From a virus (taxonomy: Duplodnaviria; Heunggongvirae; Uroviricota; Caudoviricetes): DNA of 19,790 nucleotides. Below the pieces are notes generated by a model. That model saw only the letters and a program-made list of their open reading frames with translations. It ran no database searches and was not told where the DNA came from. The stretch covers positions 1 to 19,790 of IMG/VR virus record IMGVR_UViG_2872180393_000005; one strand, written 5' to 3'. Positions 8,537-13,609 of this stretch are shown piece after piece. How positions within the stretch are numbered: position 1 is the first letter of the stretch; each line of letters starts with the position of its first letter. The position numbers were made by a program, and so were the translations under genes.

Positions 8537-8564
8537 TTGATTCGCGCACCTTCGCAGATAGAAT
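8537..8564 (+). promoter_or_regulatory. Sigma70-like promoter: -35 TTGATT, 16-bp spacer, -10 TAGAAT
   Basis: Good consensus match about 80 nt upstream of the 8646 ORF. Confidence 0.4.
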
Positions 8565-8645
8565 CGACTCACTTAAGTAGCGCGCAGGGAGAAGAGGGAT
8601 GGACCCCGAACAGGGGAGAGCTATTTATCTGGAAGGATTCTGAAG

Positions 8646-8933
8646 ATGAAAATCGAAGAATTGCGTGAAATTTTTAGTGAAAATGGCCTCTATGCTGTGC
8701 GCGTTGAGAATGGAGCGATTGTCAGCCATTGCCGCATTAGATGTTTGCAATCTCAACAAAGGAAGAGCGGTGCTGTGTTATTTTATTTTTGTAATGGACT
8801 TCTGACGGACGGTTTTATTTTGCGTGAGGACGAATTTGTCACATCATTACGGGTTTTGAAAGAGATTGGTTTTAAGGCTGGTTTTCTGCTTTTGCTGAAG
8901 AATAAACTCATCTACAATCTTGAGCAGGATTGA
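8646..8933 (+). CDS. Hypothetical protein, 95 aa
   Basis: ATG with AAGGA upstream; no family recognised. Confidence 0.35.
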   Translation: MKIEELREIFSENGLYAVRVENGAIVSHCRIRCLQSQQRKSGAVLFYFCNGLLTDGFILREDEFVTSLRVLKEIGFKAGFLLLLKNKLIYNLEQD

Positions 8934-8971
8934 ACTCCTGCTGTGTAACACCGTGCCACCGGAGAAAGCCG

Positions 8972-9571
8972 ATGGCACATATACAACTGGTCAAACAAAC
9001 CTCTTCCGGATTACTTCTCCCGGCGACGCCGGAGAGTTGCGATTTTCTGCATCAAATCAAAATAGGTGAGTGGATACACGCAGACTTTAAGCGTGTGCGT
9101 AACTACGCATTCCACAAGCGTTTTTTCAAACTCCTGCAACTGGGTTTCGATTACTGGACTCCGGTCGGTGGGGCGATCACGCCTCGCGAACGAAAACTGG
9201 TGTCCGGTTTCGTTGATTACCTGTGTGAATCAGTAGGCCGGGAACATACGCCAGCTCTGAGCGAAGCCGCAGAGCAATATCTGAATACAGTTGCGACACG
9301 CAGAACCCGTGATACGGCATTGCTAAAGTCGTTTGAGGCTTTCCGCGAGTGGGTAACCATTCAGGCCGGATTTTACACCGAGCATATTTATCCTGATGGT
9401 AGTCGTGGGCGCAGGGCAAAATCTATCGCATTTGCGAACATGGACGAAACCGAGTTTCAGCAGGTTTATAAATCTGTACTGAATGTGCTGTGGAACTGGA
9501 TCCTGTTCCGTAAATTCTCCTCTCCGGAGGAAGTCGAAAATGTGGCCGCGCAGCTACTGGAGTTTGCGTAA
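8972..9571 (+). CDS. DUF1367-like phage nin-region protein (YbcN-like), about 199 aa
   Basis: ATG at 8972 with GGAG 8 nt upstream; recalled DUF1367 motifs (FKRVRNYAFHKRFFKLLQLGFDYW, RAKSIAFANMDE). Confidence 0.55.
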   Translation: MAHIQLVKQTSSGLLLPATPESCDFLHQIKIGEWIHADFKRVRNYAFHKRFFKLLQLGFDYWTPVGGAITPRERKLVSGFVDYLCESVGREHTPALSEAAEQYLNTVATRRTRDTALLKSFEAFREWVTIQAGFYTEHIYPDGSRGRRAKSIAFANMDETEFQQVYKSVLNVLWNWILFRKFSSPEEVENVAAQLLEFA

Positions 9572-9861
9572 TGGTGGATTTACGTAAAGCGGCGCGGGGG
9601 CAGATGTGCACCGTCAGAATTCCTGGCTACTGCAATCACGATCCGGAAACGTCTGTGCTGGCGCATTACCGACTGGCGGGAACGTGCGGAACAGCGACAA
9701 AACCACACGATATGCAGGCGGCGATTGCCTGTAGCTCATGCCACGATTTAATCGACGGGCGGGTAAAAACAAGCGATTACACCAAAGAAGAATTACGCCT
9801 GATGCATGCAGAAGGTGTTTTTCGCACGCAAGAAATCTGGAGAAAGGAAGGTTATTTATGA
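9571..9861 (+). CDS. YbcO-like DUF1364 protein (putative metal-binding nuclease), 96 aa
   Basis: LRKAARGQMCTVRIPGYCN...TSVLAHYRL...ACSSCHD matches recalled YbcO of prophage DLP12; start overlaps upstream stop (TAATG). Confidence 0.65.
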   Translation: MVDLRKAARGQMCTVRIPGYCNHDPETSVLAHYRLAGTCGTATKPHDMQAAIACSSCHDLIDGRVKTSDYTKEELRLMHAEGVFRTQEIWRKEGYL

Positions 9862-10412
9862 TTTACCCAACAAATACAGGCAAAAGCGGGGAACACCTTC
9901 GTCTCACCACGCTGGAAAGTGTCTGGATTCAGGGAAAACTGCGCATGTGGGGGCGCTGGTCGTATATTGGCGGCGGTAAGACGGGGAATATGTTCAACCA
10001 GTTGTTGGCCTCTAAAAAGCTGACAAAAACGGCAATTAACGAGGCGCTCCGGAGGATGAAAAAAGCAGGTCTGGACAAACCTGAACTTGAGGCTTTTTTG
10101 CGGGATATGATCAACGGCAAGCAAAAAAGCTGGCTGGTGCATTGTACTGATGCAGAGGCGTTATGCATTGATCGGGTGATTAGTGAAGTGCTGGCAGAAC
10201 ACCCAGGATTGATTTGTATCCTCCGGCAACGATATGAAGGGAGGGGGATGACTAAGCGAAAAATGGCTGAATTGCTGAATGATTCACACCCTGAGTGGTG
10301 TTACGCCACGTGCCGTAATCGCATAGATGCGTGGTTGAAAATGGCAGAGTTTATGCTCTATCTGCCGATGCGTGATGCATTCTCTTCCGGGGATTTAAAA
10401 ACTGTCTGTTGA
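9858..10412 (+). CDS. Putative late-gene antiterminator Q (Q-like family), 184 aa
   Basis: ATG with AGGAAGG upstream and ATGA coupling to the preceding gene; WGRW motif recalled from Q homologs; stop codon overlaps the -35 of the downstream promoter, the classic Q-pR' arrangement. Confidence 0.55.
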   Translation: MIYPTNTGKSGEHLRLTTLESVWIQGKLRMWGRWSYIGGGKTGNMFNQLLASKKLTKTAINEALRRMKKAGLDKPELEAFLRDMINGKQKSWLVHCTDAEALCIDRVISEVLAEHPGLICILRQRYEGRGMTKRKMAELLNDSHPEWCYATCRNRIDAWLKMAEFMLYLPMRDAFSSGDLKTVC

Positions 10413-10438
10413 CTCAATCTGTTATCCGGGGCTATATT
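10409..10438 (+). promoter_or_regulatory. pR'-like late promoter (module B): -35 TTGACT overlapping the Q stop, 18-bp spacer, -10 TATATT
   Basis: Position directly after Q; core and initial transcribed region duplicated in module A. Confidence 0.55.
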
Positions 10439-10498
10439 CCTCACGCGCCAGCAAAATCTGGCGTCGGGATTGGCGTCCCGGATATCGAAACGGTGCAT

Positions 10499-11603: not shown

Positions 11604-11679
11604 GCCGACTTAGCTCAGCAGGCAGAGCAACTGACTTGTAATCAGTAGGTCACCAGTTCGATTCCGGTAGTCGGCACCA
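11604..11679 (+). tRNA. tRNA-Thr (TGT anticodon, reads ACA)
   Basis: 76-nt cloverleaf; anticodon stem actga/tcagt with loop ctTGTaa; one A-C mismatch in the T-stem. Confidence 0.7.
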
Positions 11680-11682
11680 TAT

Positions 11683-11757
11683 GCGGGCATCGTATAATGG
11701 CTATTACCTCAGCCTTCCAAGCTGATGATGCGGGTTCGATTCCCGCTGCCCGCTCCA
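11683..11757 (+). tRNA. tRNA-Gly (TCC anticodon, reads GGA), apparently identical to host glyT
   Basis: 75-nt sequence gcgggcatcgtataatggctattacctcagccttccaagctgatgatgcgggttcgattcccgctgcccgctcca matches recalled E. coli glyT. Confidence 0.85.
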
Positions 11758-12369
11758 GCGAGATTTGAGACGAAGGTTGTTATTTGCACTGACACAATAT
11801 TGTGTGGGAATGTCTGACTCCTTACCATCTCCTGTTCTGTGATGTTGTTTTGTTGCAGTTCCAGTGCTCTTTTTTCAGCACCAGAATGGTGCATTGTCGG
11901 TCAGGTTACGTAGTGAACCTCTGGCAGGGGACTGATGATTCATCATTCTGGTGTTGTAAATATCTCTTCGGACAACTTACAAAATATTCTAAGCAAACCC
12001 CGGGAACACACTCTTAACTGCCTTGGTTGGCGGTTTTTTGTACAGTGCTCGGTATGTGTGAGCTGGAAATCATATTTTGCATGGACTGGAATCATGCTGT
12101 TATTTAGGGGCGAAGAACTGGCTTTTTCTTCCGCCTTCTCACCAGTAATGATTAGAAAAATAATGAAATGCCCCCTCCGGGGAGGAGGACCGTAGAAAAA
12201 GGACCCGCCAGCAAAAACATTGGGGATGAACAGCTTTCGCTACTCAGATTGCTGGCGGGTAAAGTTCCTCATGAATTAAGAATGCTACGCGATCTTTTTT
12301 AATGGAAATGAAAATTATTGTCAATTAGACGTGCGTGTTTTTTCATACAATATTGGTAAAGGTGATTCA

Positions 12370-12400
12370 GGCCATCAGAGTTTTGCTGATGGCCTTTTTT
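12370..12400 (+). terminator. Strong rho-independent terminator 36 nt upstream of the holin gene
   Basis: 9-bp stem ggccatcag / ctgatggcc, 7-nt loop, then tttttt. Confidence 0.7.
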
Positions 12401-12435
12401 CTTTCCGATAGCACAGGTCTGTCGGGGGGCGGGAT

Positions 12436-12651
12436 ATGTATCAGATGGAAAAAATATCAACAGGCATTGCCTACGGCACCTCCGCCGGCAGTGCCGGCTA
12501 CTGGTTTTTGCAGTGGTTGGATCAGGTCAGTCCGTCACAGTGGGCTGCGATTGGTGTGCTGGGAAGTCTGCTTCTGGGGCTTCTGACTTATCTGACGAAT
12601 CTGTATTTCAAAATAAGAGAAGATAAGCGTAAGGCTGCGAGAGGTGAATAA
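12436..12651 (+). CDS. Holin, phage 21 S-type (pinholin class), 71 aa
   Basis: [10 protein letters not shown]...[19 protein letters not shown] closely resembles S21; dual-start motif present; stop overlaps the endolysin start. Confidence 0.85.
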
Positions 12652-13148
12652 TGTCGCCATCATTACGCAAGGCTGTTGCAGTTGCTATTGGTGGCGGGGC
12701 TGTTGCTATAGCATCTGTGTTAATCACTGGCCCAGGTGGTAACGATGGTCTGGAAGGTGTCAGCTACATACCATACAAAGATATCATTGGTGTATGGACT
12801 GTATGTCACGGACACACCGGAAAAGACATCATGCCTGGTAAAACGTATACCGAAGCAGAATGCAAAGCTCTCCTGAATAAAGACCTTGCCACTGTCGCCA
12901 GACAAATTAACCCGTACATCAAAGTCGATATACCGGAAACAACGCGCGGCGCTCTTTACTCGTTCGTTTACAACGTGGGCGCTGGCAATTTCAGAACATC
13001 GACGCTTCTTCGCAAAATAAACCAGGGCGATATCAAAGGCGCATGTGACCAGCTACGTCGCTGGACATATGCTGGCGGTAAGCAATGGAAAGGGCTGATG
13101 ACCCGTCGTGAGATTGAGCGTGAAGTATGTTTGTGGGGGCAGCAATGA
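12651..13148 (+). CDS. SAR-type endolysin (lysozyme with N-terminal signal-anchor-release helix), 165 aa
   Basis: Hydrophobic Gly/Ala-rich N-terminus ([20 protein letters not shown]) followed by a lysozyme-like domain; canonical position after the holin. Confidence 0.85.
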
Positions 13149-13609
13149 GCAGAGTCACCGCGATTATCTCCGCTCTGGTTATCTGCATCATCGCCTGCCT
13201 GTCATTGGCTGCTAATCATTACCGTGATAACGCCATTACCTACAAAGAGCAGCGCGATAATGTGAAGGAAAAACTCAACCAGGCGACCGCAATCATTACT
13301 GACATGCAGATACGCCAGCGTGATGTTGCTGCACTCGATGCAAAATACCTGAAGGAGTTAGCTGATGCGAAAGCTGAAAATGATGCTCTACGTGATGATG
13401 TTGCCGCTGGTCGTCGTCGGTTGCACGTCAAAGCAGCCTGTCCGTCCGTGCGTGAAGCCACCATCGCCTCCAGCGTGGATAATGCAGTCTCCCCCAGACT
13501 GGCAGACACCGCTGAACGGGATTATTTCACCCTCCGGGAACGACTGGTAATGATGCAGGCCCAACTTGAAGGTGCTCAGCAATACATAACCGAACAGTGT
13601 TTAAAGTAA
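13145..13609 (+). CDS. Rz-like inner-membrane spanin, 154 aa
   Basis: [20 protein letters not shown]... near-identical in pattern to lambda Rz; ATGA overlap with the endolysin stop. Confidence 0.85.
13365..13550 (+). CDS. Rz1-like outer-membrane lipoprotein spanin, embedded in the +1 frame of Rz, 61 aa
   Basis: [20 protein letters not shown] lipobox and proline-rich body as in lambda Rz1. Confidence 0.8.

Follow-up and report, generated by a model that had tools for sequence, protein, structure and literature searches.

An intact Q operon and lysis cassette with two IsrK/C4 antirepressor switches in a repressor-less lambdoid prophage remnant

Introduction

The DNA analyzed here, hereafter called the window, comprises the 19,790 nucleotides (nt) of IMG/VR virus record IMGVR_UViG_2872180393_000005, and the region of interest within it (positions 8537 to 13609) holds an operon that ends in a Q-type antiterminator gene, a small-RNA and antirepressor cassette, a group of transfer RNA (tRNA) genes and a lysis cassette of holin, endolysin and spanin genes. 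We consider this region likely to represent the late-control and lysis end of a lambdoid prophage of the Rac/Gifsy type that has been cut by IS600-mediated deletions to an ipaH-carrying remnant, and that has been stranded recently, is still armed and is decaying. The nine open reading frames (ORFs) that extend from orf95, the first gene of the Q operon, to Rz1 are all intact, and a conserved segment at 11248-11359 is the probable late promoter and Q-loading region through which this Q would act.

The overall layout is already known from the Gifsy-1 antQ/isrK locus and from lysis cassettes of the phage-21/DLP12 type, and the window is a fairly ordinary example of it. Nor is it new for a remnant without a repressor to retain an intact cassette of the S21 type and a Q-like regulator, since both are present in DLP12 of Escherichia coli K-12 (PMC7918800). 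An initial annotation of this DNA had described an intact Q-like gene and lysis cassette in a defective prophage with no visible repressor, and had proposed that lysis would be controlled by the level of Q and by terminator read-through alone. The analysis presented below bears out the first of these statements, and leads to a different view of the second.

Results

A defective prophage that retains its Q operon

Searches of the window by tblastn with the proteins of three related prophages returned no homologue of cI, Cro or YdaT, nor of replication, terminase, portal or head proteins, and no helix-turn-helix regulator was found by Pfam among the larger window ORFs that were scanned. The reported absence of immunity, replication and structural genes is thereby upheld, with a DUF4376 tail-fibre-related ORF at 15598-16221 as the only structural-gene trace, and the region belongs to a defective lambdoid prophage remnant without a repressor gene of its own.

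The Q operon consists of four genes in the order orf95-DUF1367-YbcO-Q (Table 1) and is headed by a predicted sigma-70 promoter that is conserved. This promoter, TTGATT-16-TAGAAT, lies where the initial annotation had placed it and matches the consensus at 9 of 12 positions in a promoter scan. Its hexamers stand at a constant distance from a conserved 5' leader, and its spacer diverges, in all of the leader-carrying Escherichia/Shigella, Salmonella and Citrobacter loci. Over the region as a whole, the scan returned no more promoter-like sites than expected from shuffled sequence (7 versus 7.3), and the promoter calls made here are founded on conservation and not on the scan. The stem of the leader hairpin is maintained via a compensatory change in a Citrobacter locus (L014). 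The orf95 protein, for its part, is 100% identical to WP_000687440 of a complete prophage (locus L004). This arrangement resembles that of Gifsy-1, where the four genes SL2582-SL2579 form an operon that ends in antQ and has its own mapped transcription start (PMC4825925). A sok/hok toxin-antitoxin system sits just upstream of the operon, and between the two is a terminator-like hairpin (8473-8516) that is weak in the window (z = -0.5).

The Q gene itself begins at 9858 and not at the start of a longer ORF from 9738, which gives a full-length protein of 184 codons, the same as that of Q in complete prophages and in agreement with the earlier description of the gene as intact. The protein matches the Pfam DUF1133 model with 359 bits and, at the borderline, PF06530 with 26.6 bits against a cut-off of 26. 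A profile built from 17 sequences of the Q family recovered the Q21 structures 6P18 and 6JNX from PDB (E=1.9e-8), and an hhalign comparison with Q21 aligned residues 14-176 with residues 6-151 at 95.9% probability. By homology, Q is thus placed in the Q21 superfamily, within its DUF1133 branch, as a distant relative of Q21, with a predicted antitermination function. A survey of Shiga toxin (Stx) phages had already labelled DUF1133 proteins as Q on the basis of HHpred (PMC8136144). The relatives of Q in a scan of genome contigs are at most 90% identical, and a tblastn search with Q over the phage collection returned no Salmonella phage. A Salmonella locus (L013) has a Q of 83% identity that is also followed by isrK.

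A probable late promoter and Q-loading module

The segment at 11248-11359 is the probable cognate late promoter, Q-loading region and tR' terminator of the DUF1133-type Q. We base this assignment on conserved position and on architecture, namely a promoter, a -10-like element and a short terminated transcript. This order, with tRNA genes next, corresponds to the pR'-pause-tR' arrangement of lambda and phage 21, as annotated for pR' in phage 21. An nhmmer search found the module downstream of Q in every fetched genome locus with a full-length Q except L009 and L010. Additionally, a DUF1133 Q lies upstream of the module in 111 of the 116 IMG/VR contigs that carry the conserved box with enough upstream sequence, 89 of them with Q directly adjacent and 22 in the order Q-isrK-ORF6N-module. 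Most DUF1133 Q genes are directly followed by a module of this type, without isrK. For example, the module starts at the Q stop codon in E. coli FDAARGOS_944, RMDEC465 and E. ruysiae, and also does so in Citrobacter, Enterobacter, Pseudescherichia, Shimwellia, Phytobacter and Xenorhabdus. The distance from Q is ~0.6 kb greater in Pantoea, and in the window the module has been displaced 830 bp from Q by the isrK-ORF6N cassette. The association of the module with this Q family extends across Enterobacterales.

Both the TAYGCT -10-like element at about +1 and the terminator of the module are conserved across relatives. RNAalifold analysis of 15 loci supports the terminator hairpin only, and an RNA structure within the box was therefore dropped as a candidate; the box appears instead to be a DNA element. 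Also dropped was the idea that the short transcript from 11283-11359 corresponds to the Gifsy-1 small RNA IsrJ, as Rfam gave no isrJ match in the window or in L013 at E values up to 10. The Gifsy-1 study reports no Q site for AntQ (PMC4825925).

Two IsrK/C4 antirepressor switches

The 830 bp that separate Q from the module are recognizable as a complete cassette (10409-11239) of IsrK, C4, an upstream ORF (uORF) and an ORF6N protein, laid out as the isrK-orf45-anrP switch of Gifsy-1. Its promoter is the best promoter match of the region (10 of 12 positions), and the IsrK RNA that follows it contains c4-a1b1 target sites (Rfam 52.9 bits at 10432-10484) and ends in an intrinsic terminator at 10499-10519 that is supported by folding. 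The ORF6N protein is 65% identical to the product of the gene in the equivalent position of Salmonella locus L013. We refer to this cassette as copy B, since another complete one, copy A, is present 3.26 kb upstream in the same orientation and is directed toward hok and the Q operon. The uORF of copy A, with its ATG at 7291, forms an in-frame fusion with ORF6N, and the Rfam scores of this copy are 75.1 bits for isrK, 52.2 for c4-a1b1 and 77.6 for C4. Both copies pass the gathering scores of all three families (50, 46.7 and 45, respectively). The same two-copy order with the same 3.26-kb spacing surrounds the Q gene of L013. The switch is also found away from any DUF1133 Q, as in copy A of the window, in RM8082 (which has a Q of a different family) and in RMDEC465, and it is therefore a mobile cassette and not a Q site.

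Analysis of Gifsy-1 has established that the switch gates antQ expression: IsrK supplied in trans opens translation of the uORF, AnrP is made and the messenger RNA of the antQ operon increases (PMC4825925). The first AUG of orf45 is at A107 (PMC4825925, Table 1), and the corresponding ATG in the window is at about +107. By placing the late promoter ahead of the terminator at 10499-10519, the initial annotation in effect took the promoter just after Q, together with that terminator, as the late-control unit; this unit is instead the IsrK gene (10409-10519; Rfam 77.8 bits). Control of the cassette therefore does not rest on the level of Q and on read-through alone, as had been proposed with both switches (10409-11239 and 7141-7971) overlooked.

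A further observation concerns the complete prophage L004, where the N-terminus of an annotated Rha-family regulator (positions 1964-2812 of that locus, minus strand) matches the translated isrK/C4 leader of the window with 39-40% identity. This suggests that the Rha-family gene may carry another leader of the C4 type before a different antirepressor.

An intact lysis cassette of the phage-21 type

The pinholin, endolysin, Rz and Rz1 are all of full length, with Pfam matches and their key residues present, as had been described. The holin is 91.5% identical to S21 (65 of 71 residues) and retains both M1 and M4, and thus belongs with the class II holins of the S21 family, which are ~71 aa long with two transmembrane domains and a dual start. 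The complete prophage L004 encodes the same holin, at 100% identity. The endolysin, of the signal-anchor-release (SAR) type that is marked by a Gly/Ala-rich SAR segment at the N-terminus, is 94.5% identical to R21 (156 of 165 residues), has the catalytic E35/D44/T50 triad, matches PDB entries 4ZPU and 3HDE across residues 1-165 (4ZPU, which is RrrD, at 5.6e-108) and is 100% identical to the RrrD of L004. Rz1 lies inside Rz in the +1 frame and has the lipobox cysteine and a proline-rich stretch expected of an outer-membrane spanin. E. coli FDAARGOS_944 has a complete prophage whose S, R and orf95 proteins show 100% identity to those of the window.

The holin N-terminus reads MYQMEK (12436-12447), an allele also present in complete E. 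coli prophages, where S21 has MKSMDK. As Lys2 of S21-71 is replaced in this allele (MYQM), the charge difference of the antiholin is not retained.

The cassette layout is that of phage 21 and DLP12. It had been called a mosaic of a phage-21-like holin and endolysin with lambda-like Rz/Rz1, and S and R are indeed of the phage-21 type. The claim of a mosaic is without force, however, as the Rz and Rz1 of phage 21 are themselves 97.4% and 98.3% identical to those of lambda, those of the window are ~80-84% identical to both phages, and one contiguous nucleotide match to phage 21 (89.7%) covers S-R-Rz-Rz1. The arrangement is thus the native one of phage 21.

Terminators between the late promoter and the holin

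The three intrinsic terminators that had been listed ahead of the holin all exist, and there is a fourth and weaker one at 12016-12035. However, the first of the three belongs to IsrK, which leaves only those at 11334-11359, 12016-12035 (weak) and 12369-12395 between the late promoter and the holin. Given that 11248-11359 is the conserved partner of the Q family, the terminator at 11334-11359 is the probable tR'. The three closest relatives among E. coli prophages have the strong terminator at 12369 in identical form, and 13P484A and phage 21, which are more distant, still align with the 3' arm of its hairpin and its T-run.

Proposed mode of action and probable decay

We propose that Q expressed from the 8537 promoter would load onto RNA polymerase at the 11248-11310 part of the module, and that polymerase so modified would ignore tR' as well as the terminators at 12016 and 12369 and transcribe the lysis genes. 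The 12369 terminator would shield the holin from constitutive transcription of the tRNA genes, such that only Q-modified polymerase reaches the lysis genes. As in Gifsy-1, IsrK/C4 would keep the antirepressor untranslated until IsrK accumulates, and in a complete phage the antirepressor would then inactivate the repressor, with a consequent rise in transcription of the Q operon. As there is no repressor gene in the window, the antirepressors are without a target encoded in cis. With that gene gone, the cassette would be silenced only by low output of the 8537 promoter, by the terminators and possibly by the repressor of another resident prophage that acts in trans.

Close relatives of the window have lost parts of this system in several ways. 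Three sister contigs in IMG/VR (L150, L151 and L152) are 99-100% identical to the window. L150 has lost 7771-10403, a stretch that includes hok together with the Q operon, and the breakpoints fall in the repeats formed by the two ORF6N switches. In L151 the holin ATG is preceded, at a distance of 8-10 nt, by an inserted IS110-family element, and both L151 and L152 lack 63 nt inside DUF1367. In Shigella flexneri SFBU1023 one locus (L010) has lost everything from ORF6N to past the lysis genes, next to IS600, and a second locus (L029) has a Q that is truncated at codon 38. Given these varied lesions, and S and R proteins that are identical to those of live prophages, the module is most likely recently stranded and decaying rather than domesticated.

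Discussion

Alternative readings

The initial annotation implies a simpler scheme in which 10409-10438 would be the Q-dependent late promoter with 10499-10519 as its tR', and the dosage of Q alone would set lysis through three terminators. The -35 element of this promoter overlaps the Q stop codon, much as pR' lies just after Q in lambda and in phage 21, the promoter is the best match in the region, and it yields a short terminated transcript. Furthermore, IsrK supplied in trans raised a read-through transcript ~8-fold in Gifsy-1 while antQ rose, which would fit Q acting at such a site (PMC4825925). We nevertheless regard this scheme as unlikely, because the transcript in question is IsrK, with C4 and its targets, the unit also occurs away from DUF1133 Q genes (copy A, RM8082 and RMDEC465), the 11248-type module and not isrK directly follows most of these Q genes, and the isrK leader lacks the conserved TAYGCTTCGCAAAGC box. 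The window might also hold a domesticated module of the kind proposed for DLP12, where the host keeps S/R/Rz/Rz1 and Q at a low and regulated level of expression for roles in cell-wall turnover, vesicles and biofilms. There is precedent in the intact and transcribed S21-type SRRz/Rz1 of DLP12 under a Q-like factor, RpoE and Hha (PMC7918800), and the window matches it in being a defective prophage without immunity, replication or virion genes whose SRRz/Rz1 is intact, as is every other one of the nine ORFs that run from orf95 to Rz1. Retention over the host lineage is not observed, however, as three sister contigs and two S. flexneri loci carry lesions, and Q or the lysis genes are lost or interrupted among these near-identical sister contigs and in S. 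flexneri. The identity of S, R and orf95 to proteins of a complete prophage argues for recent stranding over long retention, and loss of the DLP12 SRRz genes in Shigella has been reported to be pathoadaptive, according to the citation of Leuzzi 2017 in PMC7918800. Domestication is consequently an improbable explanation.

A different possibility is that the cassette has been disarmed in cis, with changes in the late-promoter box that block Q loading and leave the intact Q and lysis genes harmless. The window carries three transitions within 13 nt of the most conserved block of the box (11295 C>T, 11301 C>T and 11307 G>A), and the next 142 nt are identical to FDAARGOS_944. In the 15-locus alignment, 11 of the 12 box-carrying sequences have C at position 11295 and only the window has T, and the exact 29-mer of the window was not found in IMG/VR, in the metagenome collection or in 5,426 E. 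coli genomes, a collection in which Shigella genomes are not included. This last fact cuts the other way as well, since the variant may be common in Shigella. The three sister contigs read T, T and G at these positions, and thus only G11307A is private to the window; with two of the three substitutions shared, mutational disarming of the box is weakened as a candidate and seems to us a doubtful reading. We give equally little credence to the combined proposal that the two direct-repeat IsrK/C4-antirepressor switches around the Q operon, a design that may be conserved to judge from L013, form with the hitherto unassigned late module of DUF1133 Q proteins an RNA-gated and repressor-independent kill switch that still works, and that the private G11307A, in an otherwise nearly invariant box, is what lets the host tolerate it.

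Several points count against our own interpretation of a still-armed and decaying module. The residues T11295, T11301 and A11307 of the window stand against C, C and G in 121 of 124 IMG/VR contigs, and given these substitutions the putative loading of Q could be altered. The loading role of 11248-11310 is itself inferred from conserved position and architecture only. The -10 element of the module, TTCAAT, is without the usual A at position 2, so that the upstream TG is needed for the promoter to be plausible. The proposed likeness to Gifsy-1 relies on the gene map in PMC4825925 and on the L013 locus with its 83%-identical Q and isrK, and there is no Rfam isrJ match where Gifsy-1 places isrJ. 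Additionally, as the toxicity of Gifsy-1 AntQ needed no lysis genes, the main hazard posed by the Q of the window may be global antitermination and not lysis. Gifsy-1 AntQ arrests growth even in the absence of lysis genes, and its toxicity is relieved by Rho (PMC4825925); the latter observation speaks, indirectly, for an antitermination activity.

Relation to known systems

Gifsy-1 shares with the window a four-gene operon that ends in Q, isrK right after Q, a uORF whose AUG lies at about +107 over a C4/STnc1160-type RNA, an antirepressor-like gene next in order, and lysis genes downstream (Hershko-Shalev et al. 2016, PMC4825925). Unlike the window, which lacks immunity, replication and structural genes, Gifsy-1 is a complete and inducible prophage with a repressor on which AnrP can act, and the window alone continues with four tRNA genes and a lysis cassette of the phage-21 type, without an isrJ match. 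DLP12 of E. coli K-12 (quuD, essD-rrrD(ybcS)-rzpD/rzoD) is likewise defective, lacks an immunity region and has a Q-type gene and an intact S21/R21-type operon (PMC7918800). The window differs from it in being located in an ipaH island at sdsR/pphA rather than at argU, in having a Q of the DUF1133 branch and IsrK/C4 antirepressor switches, and in that it shows no sign of domestication, with the cassette being lost from sister strains.

Coliphage 21 (OL657228) has the same succession of Q, a promoter with an early pause element, a short terminated transcript, tRNAs and S/R/Rz/Rz1. However, its Q is only remotely related to that of the window (27% over 133 aligned columns), the putative loading region of the window bears no resemblance to the repeats of the Q21 Q-binding element (QBE), and the window has the 830-bp small-RNA/antirepressor cassette between Q and the late promoter. 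The immI region of P1/P7 (c4-icd-ant) and the CI RNA immunity of P4, to which the Gifsy-1 switch is related, also have a promoter-proximal a1/b1 transcript that is followed by a processed C4-type RNA. This C4-type RNA blocks translation of a small ORF that is coupled to an antirepressor, and the window has matches to the same Rfam clan (CL00128). Unlike in P1 and P4, the antirepressor of the window is an ORF6N protein and its cassette sits beside Q, within the late region of a lambdoid element.

A stranded but armed module of Q and lysis genes is a potential source of self-lysis, of peptidoglycan release and of toxicity through global antitermination. An intact copy in an ipaH island, considered together with sister strains that are losing it in different ways, provides a small natural series that bears on the idea of pathoadaptive loss. 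A broader by-product of this analysis is the assignment of a probable late promoter/Q-loading module to the DUF1133 branch of Q proteins, which includes the toxic AntQ of Gifsy-1. Neither point overturns the present understanding of late control in lambdoid phages.

Chromosomal setting and neighbouring features

Both chromosomal flanks are present in the window, with SdsR/RyeA at the left and pphA at the right, and thus the whole prophage remnant of ~18 kb lies inside it. The remnant fills the sdsR-pphA interval, between sdsR/yebY and pphA, and neither of its ends falls outside the window. Judging from the IS600-like copies, the IpaH_Shig match and CssrB, the host segment appears to be a chromosome of the Shigella or enteroinvasive E. 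coli (EIEC) type. The features of the window are collected in Table 1.

Table 1. Features of the window, in order of position (aa, amino acids; z, folding z-score)
Feature	Position	Strand	Remarks
DUF2511 protein and SdsR/RyeA small RNAs	463-607 (SdsR/RyeA)		Left flank, beside integrase
Tyrosine integrase	735-1811	-	Left end, after SdsR/RyeA
IS600-like insertion sequences, two further copies	1964-3238 and 4018-5282		
Switch copy A	7141-7971	+	Promoter TTGACG-18-TATATT 7147-7176; IsrK 7183-7259; C4 7287-7371; ORF6N 7423-7971
sok/hok (mok) type I toxin-antitoxin	8074-8396	+	Rfam sok 96.3 bits; Pfam HOK_GEF
Predicted Q-operon promoter "PantQ"	8537-8564	+	-35 TTGATT 8537-8542; 16-nt spacer; -10 TAGAAT 8559-8564
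Conserved 5' leader of Q operon	8580-8620	+	GCGCGCAGGGAGAAGAGGGATGG at 8580, then hairpin GGACCCC-GAACA-GGGGAG
orf95	8646-8933	+	First Q-operon gene; without family assignment
DUF1367 protein	8972-9571	+	Second gene; Pfam PF07105, 329.6 bits, 1-198 of 198
YbcO/DUF1364 putative nuclease	9571-9861	+	Third gene; Pfam PF07102, 152.7 bits
Q-type antiterminator (DUF1133, AntQ-like)	9858-10412	+	184 aa, full length
isrK promoter, copy B	10409-10438	+	TTGACT-18-TATATT; -35 overlaps Q stop codon
IsrK small RNA, copy B	10445-10519	+	Rfam isrK 77.8 bits; 75-nt RNA
C4-type antisense RNA, copy B	10546-10630	+	Rfam C4 68.7 bits; 25 nt past IsrK
35-codon uORF, copy B	10546-10657 region; ATG 10550	+	Overlaps C4; ATG ~+107 from start
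ORF6N antirepressor-like protein (AnrP-like), copy B	10682-11239	+	Pfam PF10543, 71.5 bits
Probable late promoter/Q-loading/tR' module of DUF1133-type Q	11248-11359	+	Follows ORF6N; ~120 nt
Module, promoter elements	11248-11253; 11268-11276	+	-35 TTGCAA; TGc-TTCAAT (-10 11271-11276)
Module, -10-like element	11282-11287	+	TACGCT, at ~+1
Module, conserved box	11284-11310	+	GCTTCGCAAAG...
Module, terminator	11334-11359	+	Fold z = -3.7; pairs conserved; second terminator of the initial annotation
tRNA promoter-like site	11408-11437	+	TTTGCA-18-TATTAT
Four tRNA genes	11408-11757 region	+	CAT (Ile2/Met), Arg-TCT, Thr-TGT, Gly-TCC
Weaker intrinsic-terminator-like site	12016-12035	+	Region 12016-12041; z = -2.4
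Strong intrinsic terminator	12369-12395	+	Region 12369-12404; 10-bp stem; z = -2.8; 41 nt before holin; third terminator of the initial annotation
S21-type class II holin (pinholin)	12436-12651	+	71 aa; Pfam PF04971, 121 bits; dual start M1/M4
SAR endolysin (R21/RrrD type)	12651-13148	+	165 aa
Rz i-spanin	13145-13609	+	154 aa; Pfam PF03245
Rz1 o-spanin, embedded in Rz	13365-13550	+	61 aa; Pfam PF06085; lipobox LVVVGC
IS600-like insertion sequence	13827-15101	-	Truncates prophage right after lysis cassette
Chromosomal ipaH effector gene (NEL E3 ligase)	16401-18116	-	IpaH_Shig model above cut-off
CssrB, Shigella small RNA	18245-18427	+	Adjoins ipaH at right end of remnant
pphA	18855-19514		Right flank; NCBIfam PRK11439 above cut-off

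The homologue of the first tRNA gene is annotated in RefSeq as tRNA-Ile. A 44-codon ORF (12168-12302) is present in the spacer of 680 bp that runs from the tRNA genes to the holin, and this spacer is conserved in E. coli prophages (L001 and L004), where it is unannotated. It occupies the position at which Stx phages carry stx.

Two neighbouring ORFs at 5250-5786, beside the second IS600-like copy, resemble transposase fragments and are without a Pfam match. Between two of the IS600-like copies lie a RalR toxin gene (3436-3657, minus strand) and the RalA antitoxin small RNA (3440-3618, plus strand; Rfam 207 bits), which form a Rac-prophage module.

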